Shown: positions 26,370-35,311, counted from the first letter of the whole stretch. The stretch: DNA of 62,586 bases, filler included, from Pseudomonadota bacterium (GCA_043820105.1; 8 parts of 8 records of this genome joined end to end with filler, not necessarily neighbours in it), one strand, 5' to 3'. Numbers and translations: made by a program. Notes: generated by a model not told the origin, from the letters alone.

Positions 26370-27566
26370 AGATATGGTGAAATTGAAGTTGACTACACAA
26401 TTGAACTACCTTACGAATATCCTCTATATACACCAGCTGATCTTCCCGAAGAATATCCATTTTATTTTGGAGATGATTATGAACTCGGTGAGCAAGACTA
26501 TCCTTATCAAAGTCATGATAACCAACCAGAATTTATTATTTTACCTGATCCTAACAAAGATCCGAATATAGGAAAACCTCTAATTATTGAACCAAGTCCT
26601 GAAAGGGAAGATGAAAATAAAAAACAAATAATTAGATCATTTGAAATAATAGCTTCAGGTGAAAATGAGGGAGATAGTGAAGTGATAGACAATGAAAATC
26701 AGGATATTGGGAATGTAGAACATACAGAGAAATCGACACAAGGGTCGAGTGGAATGCTAGAAAGAAAGTTGGATACTGATACAGTACAGAAATGGGATGA
26801 AAAATTAAAATTTCAAGTAGAAGTGTCTTTTGATAGGCAATACAACTTTATGATGGAGAATGGCTTAGATGAATGTGATGAAATTTTGGATGTTGGAACA
26901 GGTAACGGTTACTTCTTGGGGTTATTAGCAGTTAATAAGCCATATGTGTCTTTTACTGGATTAGACTCTAATGAAACTATGCTTGGGCGTGCAGAAGACA
27001 TAGTCCAGGGATTGGGAGTTGATAATGTTACACTATTAAGTGGAGACATAGATCAGGATCCATTTGGAGATAAAGAACCTCAATTTGATGGGATATTATT
27101 GAGATATACTGATGTTCATATAAGTGATTTTGAACATACATTATCTATACTATCAAAATATCTAAAACCAGGGGGTAGAATTTGGATTTTTTCCGTTGAA
27201 ATAGATAATATGGGGAGTACTCCTGAGCATGAAGTCTATAAATTATATATTGAAGGAATTCAAAGGTTTTACCATACATTTGGCATAGATGGACATAGAG
27301 CTACTATTCTTACATCCTTGCTTGATATTGCAGGGTTTTCTGAAGTAGTAAGTGTTCCTGATTTAATTTCAACTAAAGATCTTGGTGCTAAAATGTTTGG
27401 TGACTTTATGATAAATCAGGCTGAAGTGTTCAGACATTTTGATAGTACATCCTTTTCCGAAGAGGATGTTGAAATAATAAGAGATTTTGCTCATACTTAT
27501 TTATCATCTCAAGAGTTTAATGGCACTCACGGTGCAGTGATGGTTACGGCTGTTAAAAGCGAATAA
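26370..27566 (+). CDS. Class I SAM methyltransferase with long acidic Pro/Tyr-rich N-terminal region (5' partial)
   Basis: Frame is open from the contig start (RYGEIEVDYTIELPYEYP...) into ILDVGTGNG...LKPGG. Confidence 0.8.
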   Translation, partial: RYGEIEVDYTIELPYEYPLYTPADLPEEYPFYFGDDYELGEQDYPYQSHDNQPEFIILPDPNKDPNIGKPLIIEPSPEREDENKKQIIRSFEIIASGENEGDSEVIDNENQDIGNVEHTEKSTQGSSGMLERKLDTDTVQKWDEKLKFQVEVSFDRQYNFMMENGLDECDEILDVGTGNGYFLGLLAVNKPYVSFTGLDSNETMLGRAEDIVQGLGVDNVTLLSGDIDQDPFGDKEPQFDGILLRYTDVHISDFEHTLSILSKYLKPGGRIWIFSVEIDNMGSTPEHEVYKLYIEGIQRFYHTFGIDGHRATILTSLLDIAGFSEVVSVPDLISTKDLGAKMFGDFMINQAEVFRHFDSTSFSEEDVEIIRDFAHTYLSSQEFNGTHGAVMVTAVKSE

Positions 27567-27577
27567 ATATCACAAAT

Positions 27578-29551
27578 ATGGTGTGTGAAATGAAAAATAA
27601 AAAAATATGTTTAATTAATCCACCAACTTCTAATAAAATGGAACCAGCAGGTTTGCCAGCAGGATTACTCGCCATAGGTTCTATTTTAAAGAAAAGTTAT
27701 AAAAACGTTTGGATTTCTGATATTGATGTTAAATCGAGAAAAGAAAAAAGGAAACCACATCAAACTTTTTATACTAATTTAATTGAAGATATTGTAAAGA
27801 CAGAACCGAATATAATTGGATTTACATCATACTGTAATAACTTACCAGTTGTGATACATATGGCAATGGAAATAAAAAAATTAAATAAGGACATTACGAT
27901 TATATTAGGTGGCCCTCAACCGACTTTTACAGCCTCAGAAATTATGAAAAATTTCAACTGTTTTGATGTGATAAGCAGAGGAGAATCAGAAAGTCATATT
28001 AATAAATTAATATTTAAAATAAACAATAATGATTCTTTGGAATTTATACCTAATATCACTTATAAAAAATCTAATAAAGTAATAAATACAGAACCAGGAA
28101 TGCTGATTGAAGACTTAGATTGTCTTCCCGAAACAGATTATTCGTTGTTGGAATTAACCGAATATAATCCCAATAAAGAAAATATTAATATTTCTATTGA
28201 AGCAGGTAGAGGATGCCCATTTAGTTGCACATTTTGCTCAACCTCTTTGATGTGGCAAAGAAAATGTCGAATGAAGTCAATTCCAAGGTTGTATAGTGAT
28301 ATGACAAAAGCAGCAAAGACCTTTGATTATAAACATCTAGCATTAATTCATGATAACTTCACTGTAAACAAATCATACCTAATTGATTTTTGCAATTATC
28401 TAATAATGAAAAACACACCTTTTACATGGGCTTGTAGTTCTAGAGCTGATCAACTAGATGAAGAAACACTTAATATTATGAAGGAGGCAGGTTGTTGCGA
28501 GATTTATTTTGGAATTGAAAGTGGTTCAGCGAGAATCCAAAAACAAACGAAAAAGAATTTGAACATTTCTAAAGTAAAAAATGTATTAAAAAAAGTAGCG
28601 ACATCTGATATTAACTGTATATCATCTTTCATTATTGGGCATATTGAAGAGACAAAAATTGACTTAGATCAAACTTTAGAATTAATATTATATTTGAAAC
28701 TTAATGGTATTAACTTAATCCAAATGCATTTGCTAGCAGCCCATAGTGGAACTAAAGTATATGAAGAAGTCAAAGACCATTTATTTTTAAAAGCACATTC
28801 ATCTCATTTAGGTCCAATTGAAAGTTTGGAATGGAGTAGTAAATTATATGACATTGTCAAAGCGTTTCCAGAAATCTTTCCTGCTTTTTATCATTTCCAT
28901 CGTAAAAATATTGATTCAAAATTCTTAGAATTCATTCAAAATTCAGGTTTTATATTGATTAATAGTTTTTTCAGGTCAATTTATACAATATCATGTCTTA
29001 TATCTATTTCTCCAGTTGAATTGCTTTATAGGTTATATAAAAATCAATTTAAGATAACTAATGAAAATATTTCTTCAAATGATATTGAAAAGGCATTCCA
29101 CTGCATACTCGAAATTATAAGGTCTGAGAAAAAAGATTATATTAATGATATTTTAGAATATGAATTAGCAATTTATAAGCTCTCCGTTTTAGAAAATAGC
29201 GCCATTATTTTAAAAAAGCATACTAAGATAATAATAGATGGAAAGACTTTTAAATTAAAGTCTAAATTATTATTACGAAAGCTTCGTTATGAGATCGAAA
29301 ATGATAAGTTGGCAAATATGATTAAACGTGATGCATATTATTTGTTTGTTTCTGATGAGTTTAAATTTAATGAATATGAATCTTCTGTTGTTGTATTTGA
29401 GATAGAGGAGGAATTGTATCATTTTCTGGAGATCATTTCTTCAAAAGACTACTATTCATTTGATACTATTGATTTGGCGCTTTTAAGATTATCTATTTCC
29501 AAAATGAATTTAGATGATTTGGTTAAAAATAATATTTTAAATCTTACCTAA
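27578..29551 (+). CDS. Cobalamin-binding radical SAM enzyme
   Basis: N-terminal B12-binding region (LINPP..P.GLL.IGS, IGFTSY, ILGGPQPT, RGESE); GRGCPFSCTFC CxxxCxxC; YFGIESGS; long C-terminal extension. Confidence 0.9.
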   Translation: MVCEMKNKKICLINPPTSNKMEPAGLPAGLLAIGSILKKSYKNVWISDIDVKSRKEKRKPHQTFYTNLIEDIVKTEPNIIGFTSYCNNLPVVIHMAMEIKKLNKDITIILGGPQPTFTASEIMKNFNCFDVISRGESESHINKLIFKINNNDSLEFIPNITYKKSNKVINTEPGMLIEDLDCLPETDYSLLELTEYNPNKENINISIEAGRGCPFSCTFCSTSLMWQRKCRMKSIPRLYSDMTKAAKTFDYKHLALIHDNFTVNKSYLIDFCNYLIMKNTPFTWACSSRADQLDEETLNIMKEAGCCEIYFGIESGSARIQKQTKKNLNISKVKNVLKKVATSDINCISSFIIGHIEETKIDLDQTLELILYLKLNGINLIQMHLLAAHSGTKVYEEVKDHLFLKAHSSHLGPIESLEWSSKLYDIVKAFPEIFPAFYHFHRKNIDSKFLEFIQNSGFILINSFFRSIYTISCLISISPVELLYRLYKNQFKITNENISSNDIEKAFHCILEIIRSEKKDYINDILEYELAIYKLSVLENSAIILKKHTKIIIDGKTFKLKSKLLLRKLRYEIENDKLANMIKRDAYYLFVSDEFKFNEYESSVVVFEIEEELYHFLEIISSKDYYSFDTIDLALLRLSISKMNLDDLVKNNILNLT

Positions 29552-34299: not shown

Positions 34300-34327
34300 G
34301 TTTTAGACATGGTTGAAAGGAGAGTTT

Positions 34328-35311
34328 ATGGCATTTCTAAAAGATATTTTGATTGTTGATGATGAAAGCATTTTAAGGGATTTTGTTAAAAAGATTCTTG
34401 GATATGAGTATAAAATAATTGAAGCTGAAAATTATGAAAGTGGCTTAGATAAATATTTAAATAATAAAATTGATTTGGTAATTTTAGATATCGATTATCA
34501 AGAAGAGCTTACAGGTATTGATCTATTAAAGAAAATAAAACAAAATAACTCCTCTATTCCAATTATAATGCTTTCTGATCTAATGGAAACAGAAAACATT
34601 GTTGAATCAATCAAATTTGGAGCTTATGATTATATCTCAAAAAACCATGAAACACTTGATGATGAGCTTCCTTTAAGAATAAAGTCAGCACTTTTACGAA
34701 ATTTAAAAGAAAGAAATTATGAACAACTAAAACAAGAAAAAATAAATCAGAATCCAATAATAACAAAATGTCCTCAAATTCTAAAAGCACTTGATGAAAT
34801 AAAAGAAATAGAAGATATAAATTTTTTAATAGTTGGCGAAACAGGGGTTGGTAAAACTCCAATTGCTCAGTATGCAAATAGTGTGATGAAAAATGGCAGT
34901 GACAGACCCCTTGTGAGAATCAACTGCGCTGGAATTTCAAAAGAAAGAAGGCAGGATGAAATGTTTGGCCATAAAAAGGGAGCTTATACTGGAGCGGAAT
35001 GTGACAAAAATGGACTCGTGGAAATCGCAGATGGGGGTGATTTATTCTTAGATGAAATCGGTGATCTTCCATTGGATTGCCAAGCTGATCTATTGATGTT
35101 TTTAGATAGTGGTGAATATCGTAGAGTTGGTGAAACAACATTGAGATAAGCCCAAAATCGTATAATCGCTGCTACCAATAAAGATCTTCTAAAAGAAGTA
35201 AGCAAGGGCCGCTTTAGAAAAGACCTTTATTCCCGCCTTTCACAATATCGTGTTTATATCCCTCCTTTAAGAGAAAGAAAAGAAGATATTATTCCTATTA
35301 TGGAATATTGC
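34328..35311 (+). pseudogene. Sigma-54-dependent (NtrC-type) response regulator with premature stop and 3' truncation
   Basis: REC, GETGVGKT, GAYTGA, LFLDEIGD; TAA at 35147 then in-frame [32 protein letters not shown]; no HTH follows. Confidence 0.85.

Follow-up and report, generated by a model that had tools for sequence, protein, structure and literature searches.

The present text concerns the start of one contig (23,069 bp, 26369-49437) within a window, that is, the whole stretch of 62,586 nt analysed here, from a Pseudomonadota bacterium (GCA_043820105.1). The window is a chain of contigs with seven junctions of the form N44-TTAATTAATTAA-N44, and adjoining blocks are not necessarily neighbours in the genome. 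Six co-oriented genes on the + strand (26370-35376) encode, in this order, a class I S-adenosylmethionine (SAM) methyltransferase, a B12-binding radical SAM enzyme, a candidate precursor peptide of 17 codons (the micro-ORF, i.e., a very short open reading frame), a family-5 (OppA/DppA-like) solute-binding protein, a hybrid histidine kinase and a sigma-54-dependent regulator. The best-supported reading of this cassette is that of a single operon with two arms under a sigma-54 promoter, the one biosynthetic and similar to those making peptides synthesized on the ribosome and modified after translation (RiPPs), the other sensory and similar to LuxPQ/LuxO. Moreover, since this is the simplest way to connect both arms, we propose a RiPP-like autoinducer loop in which the product of the cassette is the ligand of the binding protein, a proposal to which we assign a probability of about 0.5. 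The basis is in silico (gene content and order, conservation, promoter motifs, fold likeness and a docking model), and from it we infer the chemistry, the export, the identity of the ligand and the feedback.

According to this proposal, the sigma-54 promoter would drive the operon, and a peptide of 16-17 residues (62 in one case) would be held by the C-terminal domain of the radical SAM enzyme, which resembles TglI and the RiPP recognition elements (RREs). The B12-radical SAM core would alkylate the peptide, most likely by C-methylation near its C-terminus, and the class I methyltransferase would then methylate it further. The product, or a fragment of it, would reach the periplasm via an exporter not seen in the window, and the secreted, transporter-less OppA/DppA-like protein would bind it and sit on the periplasmic domain of the hybrid kinase. 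The kinase, in turn, would signal to the sigma-54 enhancer-binding regulator, which would activate the operon promoter and close a quorum-like autoinduction loop.

The original prediction, made from the sequence alone, had described six tightly spaced co-oriented genes, a micro-ORF with a strong ribosome-binding site and a following hairpin, and a binding protein with no permease or ATPase beside it and with a kinase gene 32 nt further on. All these features were recovered: the intergenic gaps are, in operon order, 11, 26, 100, 32 and 13 nt; the sequence AAGGAG lies 7 nt 5' of the micro-ORF ATG, and a stem of 14 bp (z -4.29) follows the micro-ORF; finally, the Pfam or NCBIfam scans of genes on the 23,069-bp contig revealed no ATP-binding cassette (ABC) permease or ATPase.

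The gene order, whose conservation was checked in related loci (Table 1), is also kept. A small ORF preceded by a ribosome-binding site follows the radical SAM gene in all five loci having DNA there (the window, L001, L081, L186 and L192). An SBP_bac_5 gene lies downstream in each of the five, directly after the small ORF in four of them and separated from it by a methyltransferase gene in L186; the homologous hybrid kinase gene is next in the four loci reaching that far, with a creatininase-family gene in between in L081. A methyltransferase gene belongs to the operon in the four loci with the relevant DNA (the window, L166, L186 and L192), and a sigma-54 regulator closes it in the window and in L186. 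When 160 loci of more distant radical SAM homologues were inspected, a binding protein was present in two of them (L001 and L081); the small ORFs found after the distant radical SAM genes (70 loci listed) are sporadic and unrelated, with two groups having longer RiPP-like precursors. In L029 and L095/L096/L097, more distant radical SAM genes of the family are followed by ORFs of 72-73 codons resembling conventional RiPP precursors, one of them with a Cys/Gly-rich tail.

The components of the cassette are rare as well. Three close relatives of the radical SAM protein of the window (41-44% identity) were retrieved among 5.8 billion proteins, the other matches being at 39% or less; for the methyltransferase, four proteins were found at E<=1e-10 in 5.8 billion (three relatives). 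The relatives of the binding protein are four proteins at 49-59% identity, after which the values fall to 32%, and a profile of the sensor region of the kinase retrieved three representatives at E<=1e-30 and eight at E<=1e-10 among 1.84 billion. The genomes G001 (source of L001 and L166) and G076 (source of L186 and L192) belong to the same phylum set of 93 genomes, in which a full-length close binding protein (E<=1e-60) occurs in G076 only, G001 having a partial one on a short contig; a search with the radical SAM protein in 61 relatives of G001 retrieved, outside G001, only generic homologues (24-37%). Short contigs identical to the window, with a depth of 2-3, come from two runs of one study labelled groundwater metagenome, possibly the sample from which the window derives. 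As judged from these comparisons of sequence and gene order, the cassette is a real, rare and conserved one of uncultured groundwater bacteria.

The counterparts of the micro-ORF occupy the same position in L001, L081, L186 and L192. The three close copies (window, L001 and L081) have 17 codons each, if the TTG start is taken for L081, and align from start to stop in register; the frame of the micro-ORF alone is open in all three, the other two frames holding stops in each of them, and the DNA conservation among these loci is concentrated within the ORF. Comparing the window with L001, three codons are identical, six are synonymous and eight are non-synonymous; nine of the 17 residues are common to the two peptides. 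Since six of these nine residues are encoded by different codons, the codon pattern indicates that selection acts at the level of the peptide and not of the DNA. Six Lys/Arg occur in each of the three close peptides, and the positions K4, I/V7, I10, R/K11, K12, C/S15 and Q16 are kept among them. The L192 ORF (MKLIEVVACEAEQPIA) has a start overlapping the stop codon of the radical SAM gene and a ribosome-binding site AAGGGAGGAGG, and its 16-residue peptide has no Lys run.

Downstream of the micro-ORF, the region 29630-29735 of the window folds at -27.7 kcal/mol (none of 200 shuffles folds as well), and its first hairpin starts at the micro-ORF stop codon; comparable hairpins follow the ORF in L001 (z -3.95) and L192 (z -5.0). 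The stem-loop at 29665-29714 is likely a partial terminator or a stabiliser; the terminator scan did not list it, which we attribute to its loop of 15 nt, the scan taking loops of 3-8 nt. As an alternative, the micro-ORF could serve as a regulatory leader or arrest peptide which, along with the hairpin after it, tunes the read-through to the sensor genes, with the enzymes acting on a substrate encoded elsewhere or on a small molecule. The extreme shortness of the ORF, its Lys-rich start, the terminator-like hairpins in three of the five loci and the position of the window's first hairpin right at the stop codon are in agreement with such a role, and the missing upstream part of the window operon could hold another precursor gene; nevertheless, we regard it as improbable, given that the radical SAM enzyme has, in the model described below, a RiPP-type peptide-recognition fold, that the micro-ORF is the sole small gene kept beside this enzyme in all five loci, that no hairpin was found in L081 and L186, that synonymous changes preserve the C-terminal residues of the close peptides and that the L192 peptide has no Lys run.

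Regarding the radical SAM enzyme, the Radical_SAM (PF04055, 63.4 bits, cut-off 29.5) and B12-binding (PF02310, 46.1 bits, cut-off 32.1) domains were both recognised, and the cysteines of the CxxxCxxC motif (C209, C213 and C216) are invariant in the family alignment A1; by sequence, the enzyme can be assigned to the class B (B12-dependent) radical SAM enzymes, having both the CxxxCxxC core and the N-terminal B12-binding domain. ApyD (NF050148) is the best NCBIfam model for each of the three full-length radical SAM proteins, with 289.3 bits for the window, 167.8 for L186 and 197 for L192, the window match covering the profile positions 27-432 of 645. The identification of these proteins with ApyD was rejected, all three being far below the curated cut-off of 750 bits. 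In the part of PMC11117315 dealing with aminopyruvatide biosynthesis, ApyD belongs to the B12-radical SAM enzymes and has a peptide-recognition element; in its precursor, the penultimate tyrosine is methylated at the beta-carbon, and the apy cluster also has an MNIO enzyme, a partner protein and a P450. Pfam scans of the cassette genes in the window, L186 and L192 revealed none of the latter three, and the cassette peptides are unrelated to the ApyD precursor and far shorter.

The last 258 residues of the window enzyme have no match in Pfam. A first model of this region, built on a 5-row alignment (pLDDT, i.e., predicted local distance difference test, 56.2), was replaced by one based on 20 rows (pLDDT 77.9); the structural search with the former gave the same two top matches as the latter. 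These are TglI (8hci_C; Z 11.8, 185 residues aligned, root-mean-square deviation 3.7) and a DUF2063 protein (3dee_A; Z 11.0), the next match having a Z of 6.3; the RREs of CteB, TbiB1, lasso B1 and PqqD are among the weaker ones (Z 4.2-5.0). The TglHI entries were also the only two matches of Foldseek at E<=0.001 (E 4.3e-4). The identity of the domain to the TglI/DUF2063 matches is 8-14%. TglI, as described in a section of PMC9016710, holds an RRE recognising the scaffold peptide TglA. Since the C-terminal domain is predicted to fold like TglI, the model supports a peptide as the substrate of the radical SAM enzyme, beside which no candidate substrate gene other than the small ORF is kept. In the cassette, a B12-radical SAM core carries this domain (about 210 residues) as a fusion, whereas TglI is paired with an iron enzyme, the MNIO enzyme TglH. 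From the family membership, the chemistry is probably methylation. The modelled TglI/RRE-like fold lends in silico support to the RiPP-modifying B12-radical SAM enzyme of the original prediction.

The frame of the methyltransferase gene runs into the contig edge; this implies that the true beginning of the operon, its promoter and any upstream genes are missing from the window. The candidate starts are GTG 26682 and ATG 26742, and the frame is open for 104 codons before the former (P about 3e-4 from the stop frequency of the contig). The region 26370-26681 encodes an acidic, Tyr/Pro-rich stretch without detectable relatives; the methyltransferase frames of L166 and L192 also reach about 85-110 codons upstream, without sequence similarity. 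In both these loci, the methyltransferase homologue adjoins the radical SAM gene. An ApyS-like methyltransferase was considered and rejected (16 bits versus a cut-off of 400).

Coming to the sensory arm, the binding protein is putatively secreted, a hydrophobic N-terminal stretch present in the translations of all loci being read as a signal peptide, and its nearest solved structures are binders of peptides, dipeptides, haem/glutathione and nickel. The kinase has two membrane segments flanking a periplasmic domain of about 135 residues, followed by HisKA, HATPase, two receivers and an unassigned C-terminal region. Its sensor domain is kept in L081 and L186, with N57, D58, T61, G62 and N63 invariant. 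The presence of the binding protein beside the kinase, with no cognate ABC genes found in the scans of the window contig, and the gene order of the window, L081, L186 and L192 fit an arrangement of the LuxPQ/TorTS/ChiS-CBP type.

The binding protein (residues 25-522, from an alignment of 6 rows) was modelled in complex with the kinase (residues 32-166, from 3 rows), scoring 0.63, 0.66 and 0.63, the best of three controls scoring 0.00; the score mark is reached by 58 out of 80 solved complexes and by two out of 110 mismatched pairs, a calibration that is rough for the custom alignments used here. The runs agree in at least 93% of the contacts, and the pLDDT of the partner is at least 76. The predicted interface is formed by residues 330-337 on the side of the binding protein and by 57-67 on that of the kinase; it overlaps the stretch IPYGIGGY (328-335), invariant in six close binding proteins, and the five residues of the sensor domain mentioned above, invariant in three close kinases. 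In the distant L192 pair both motifs differ (IPTGLGGY and KDIQYGDY), which, as a single case, is compatible with co-variation. The model, hence, supports a docking of the binding protein on the periplasmic domain of the kinase, in line with the co-receptor role that the original prediction had assigned to it, and makes this protein a candidate co-receptor.

What the co-receptor would bind is the point on which a different explanation has to be weighed, namely that of a regulated RiPP cluster without self-sensing, whose product would be an antimicrobial, a metal-binding compound or a cofactor, and whose sensor would read an unrelated periplasmic cue, e.g., foreign peptides. The same conservation, promoter and docking data fit this explanation, none of them identifying the ligand; moreover, SBP_bac_5 proteins bind many ligands, the nearest solved relatives being general binders, and most loci are without an exporter. 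On the other hand, the binding protein, the kinase sensor domain, the methyltransferase and the radical SAM subfamily, all of them very rare, are found together, and peptides and binding proteins diverge in parallel, including those of the two G076 cassettes, which a private signal fits better; a cluster of this kind, blind to its own product, therefore appears to us rather unlikely. A narrower form of the autoinducer loop would be a private peptide-pheromone system of an uncultured lineage, in which a 16-17-mer methylated by the B12-radical SAM enzyme and the methyltransferase would act in the periplasm via a dedicated, transporter-less OppA-like receptor, the kinase and sigma-54, with "pherotypes" arising as peptide, enzymes and receptor co-diversify. 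The two unlike cassettes of G076 and the two radical SAM paralogues of G001 support such a diversification. We advance this reading only tentatively; if true, no earlier RiPP-type autoinducer circuit would have had a binding protein as co-receptor.

A further alternative is that the processing concerns the C-terminus only and releases a small modified amino acid or dipeptide (mycofactocin- or pearlin-like), to be sensed by the DppA-like protein or used by the cell. In four out of five peptides the C-terminus has the form Q-x, with an upstream length varying from 16 to 62 residues, and the L192 peptide does not end in this way; in L081 a creatininase-family gene separates the genes of the binding protein and the kinase, being present in one locus out of five and scoring below both family cut-offs; L192 has a MATE small-molecule exporter, and the nearest fold, TglI, belongs to a scaffold-peptide pathway. 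The gene in question (L081 2991-3746, + strand) gave 118 bits with the MftE model (cut-off 172) and 120 bits with the creatininase model (cut-off 235). No creatininase-family gene was seen among the Pfam-scanned genes of the window contig, where no search with the L081 protein was made. On balance, a release of such small fragments seems very unlikely.

The sigma-54 output was examined both at the promoter and at the regulator level. Promoters were scanned with a -24/-12 consensus in which GG and GC had to be present at fixed spacing, with a mark of at least 10/12. In all three loci having upstream DNA (L186, L166 and L192), correctly oriented sigma-54-type matches precede the first operon gene by 150-300 nt. 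The background amounts to 26 such sites in 916,920 strand-nucleotides (retrieved loci plus window, G+C content below 0.42), from which the probability of a chance site in a 300-nt region is about 0.01. The regulator of L186 is intact (464 aa, with AAA_lid_14 and HTH_8). The upstream matches, together with the terminal sigma-54 regulator in L186 and the window, suggest an autoregulation of the operon. The regulator of the window has a receiver and an AAA+ domain with a GAYTGA loop, whose match extends up to profile position 129 of 168; after the in-frame TAA the frame goes on for 74 codons. It aligns only to residues 12-328 of the L186 regulator, the lid and HTH_8 being gone, and is probably a pseudogene in this assembly, judging from the reading frame. 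The sigma-54 output of the original prediction finds support in the relatives, with their promoter matches and the intact L186 regulator; the regulator of the window looks broken.

Several observations weigh against the autoinducer loop. No exporter, protease or immunity gene was found in that part of the cassette which the window covers, cut as it is on its upstream side, and the MATE protein of L192 is the sole candidate exporter in any cassette (one locus out of five). As far as the peptides are concerned, those of L186 and L192 are unrelated in sequence to that of the window, and the Gln in the last-but-one position is absent from L192. Of the KIIRKPxC-like motif of the original prediction, a part is kept in the close peptides; its Cys is Ser in L001, and was therefore rejected as an invariant target residue. 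The start of the L081 ORF is ambiguous, a TTG without a ribosome-binding site giving 17 residues and an ATG with AGGAG giving 62; the 62-residue version overlaps the radical SAM gene. In addition, one public contig (165 nt, depth 2) has nine A's rather than eight after the micro-ORF ATG (29581-29588), and the extra A would end the window micro-ORF at seven codons; it may be either an error in a single low-depth contig or the sign of a phase-variable tract. A significant hairpin after the ORF is lacking in L081 and L186. At the level of the output, the window regulator, interrupted and truncated, does not have the full set of NtrC-type features (a receiver, a full AAA+ domain with its lid and an HTH), and since it is in this state, the window copy of the cassette may be defective; in L192, the kinase gene has no regulator gene as a neighbour. 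The sole sigma-54-like match in the window cassette (27521-27536) falls inside a coding sequence, 42 nt before the radical SAM start, and may be a coding coincidence, because it overlaps the codons of a GTHG motif also kept in the L166 methyltransferase. Lastly, the docking and fold results are models, whose underlying family alignments are thin (3 to 20 rows).

With respect to export and processing, the operon of L192 opens, after the sigma-54-like promoter, with the MATE efflux gene (414-1754, + strand). Convergent subtilase (S8) genes of about 1100 residues flank both G076 cassettes (L186 15786-18986 and L192 8922-12314, both on the - strand). The two subtilases are 70% identical, and the enzymes and binding proteins of the two cassettes share only about 26-28%; the subtilases could be processing proteases or a coincidence. 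These two subtilases and the L192 MATE protein, used as tblastn queries, gave no match in the window at 1e-3.

It is mainly in Gram-positive bacteria that RiPP enzymes are known to make peptide autoinducers. In the nisin and subtilin systems (NisK-NisR-type), the modified ribosomal peptide is sensed by the cluster's own two-component system and raises its own production. The kinases of this type sense the peptide directly and work with OmpR-type regulators and sigma-70 promoters, whereas the cassette described here has a separate periplasmic binding protein, a hybrid kinase, sigma-54, and a B12-radical SAM enzyme with a methyltransferase. As for binding proteins acting as co-receptors of kinases, these are known for sugars, autoinducer 2 (AI-2), trimethylamine N-oxide and the like. 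LuxO is the sigma-54-dependent output regulator of the LuxPQ pathway; the likeness of the window regulator to it lies in the sigma-54-dependent output, its score on the LuxO model being 142.6 bits versus a cut-off of 800. The LuxP-LuxQ-(LuxU)-LuxO system of Vibrio, as outlined in the relevant section of a 2021 review (PMC8050422), also encodes, beside the hybrid kinase, a non-transport periplasmic binding protein as its ligand-binding subunit. LuxP is, however, a Peripla_BP_4 protein, and its ligand AI-2 is a small molecule whose synthesis is encoded elsewhere; the cassette has a family-5 peptide-binding protein instead, an unassigned sensor domain of about 135 residues, and a single operon that also encodes the candidate signal with its enzymes. 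In ChiS-CBP of Vibrio cholerae, covered by the same section of that review (PMC8050422), an SBP_bac_5 protein partners the periplasmic domain of a hybrid kinase, as proposed here; CBP differs in binding chitin oligosaccharides and serving an ABC transporter, ChiS binds DNA, and the system has no peptide biosynthesis genes. The review's table includes, as signalling cases of family-5 binding proteins, DppA-Tap, AibA-TlpB and CBP-ChiS, and among the table entries considered here there is no peptide-binding protein dedicated to a sensor kinase (PMC8050422).

The original prediction did not recognise the cassette as a described family, and the full-text literature search, with supplements outside its scope, retrieved no description of a cassette of this kind. 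Each module is of a known kind, and it is their combination that is new. If the proposed loop is true, it would represent a compact, testable model of cell-cell signalling in a candidate phylum without cultured members; the very short peptides would be a new substrate class for B12-radical SAM enzymes, and the whole could provide a portable peptide-sensing module for synthetic circuits.

Table 1. Features of the window cassette, contig linkers and related loci (positions refer to the window or to the locus indicated; identities in brackets).
Locus	Feature	Position	Strand	Details
Window	Class I SAM methyltransferase	26370..27566	+	Methyltransf_31 56.5 bits; frame open to contig edge
Window	Sigma-54-like -24/-12 match	27521..27536	+	TGGCAC-N5-GTGCA; 10/12 versus consensus
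Window	B12-binding radical SAM enzyme	27578..29551	+	Radical_SAM 63.4 bits, B12-binding 46.1 bits
Window	Micro-ORF MKKKETIKIIRKPFCQG, candidate precursor peptide	29578..29631	+	17 codons; AAGGAG 29565-29570
Window	Stem-loop with U-rich tail	29665..29714	+	14-bp stem, z -4.29
Window	Family-5 (OppA/DppA-like) solute-binding protein	29732..31300	+	SBP_bac_5 213.7 bits
Window	Hybrid histidine kinase	31333..34299	+	HisKA, HATPase, two receiver domains (Pfam)
Window	Sigma-54-dependent receiver/AAA+ regulator	34313..35376	+	In-frame TAA at 35147-35149
Window	Contig linkers	4175-4274, 10592-10691, 18817-18916, 23312-23411, 26269-26368, 49438-49537, 60391-60490		
L001	2.2-kb contig of the marine metagenome-assembled genome G001			Radical SAM (41%), MKKKETVNKIKKVISQM with AAGGAGG, hairpin, binding protein (52%)
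L081	4.6-kb metagenome contig			Radical SAM (40%), small ORF ending ...KYIIKKIRKVHCQV, binding protein (52%), creatininase-family gene, kinase (31%)
L166	Second G001 contig			Sigma-54-like promoter, methyltransferase (40-42%), second radical SAM paralogue (45%) running off the contig
L166	Sigma-54-type promoter match	2128-2113		
L186	G076 cassette			Sigma-54-like promoter, radical SAM (31%), 62-codon ORF with AGGAGG ending ...SCNSRDYQM, unrelated class I methyltransferase, binding protein (50%), hybrid kinase (29%), complete sigma-54 regulator with lid and HTH_8
L186	Sigma-54-type promoter match	7710-7725		
L192	Second G076 cassette			Sigma-54-like promoter, MATE exporter, methyltransferase (37%), radical SAM (26%), MKLIEVVACEAEQPIA, hairpin, binding protein (28%), hybrid kinase (35%)
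L192	Sigma-54-type promoter match	228-243		

The rest of the contig harbors genes for a tRNA-Leu, a 23S-IVP protein, an inositol-phosphate synthase, a HEAT-repeat protein, a cyclic nucleotide (cNMP)-binding protein, MotA and MotB, as well as a phosphoesterase, a TIGR04552-family protein, Usp, PepT and two ORFs without a family match. In the Pfam and NCBIfam scans of the contig, the sequences without a family match were a 323-aa ORF (48109-49080), the 74-aa tail of the regulator and an 855-aa ORF. The sigma-70 scan was uninformative (54 sites versus 56.8 expected), and the best sigma-54-like match of the contig (11/12; 38619-38634, + strand) is located in the end of the HEAT-repeat gene, before the cNMP-binding protein, MotA and MotB. 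The inositol-phosphate synthase shares 60-70% identity with most of its full-length matches, found in 82 of the 93 genomes of the phylum set of G001, a comparison that has no outgroup. Lastly, the truncated regulator is abutted by a tRNA-Leu(CAA) gene (35474-35557, - strand) whose terminator (35463-35431) is strong; this gene is preceded by 2.6 copies of a perfect tandem repeat of 61 bp (35561-35716), and many unrelated public contigs end at 35686-35720.

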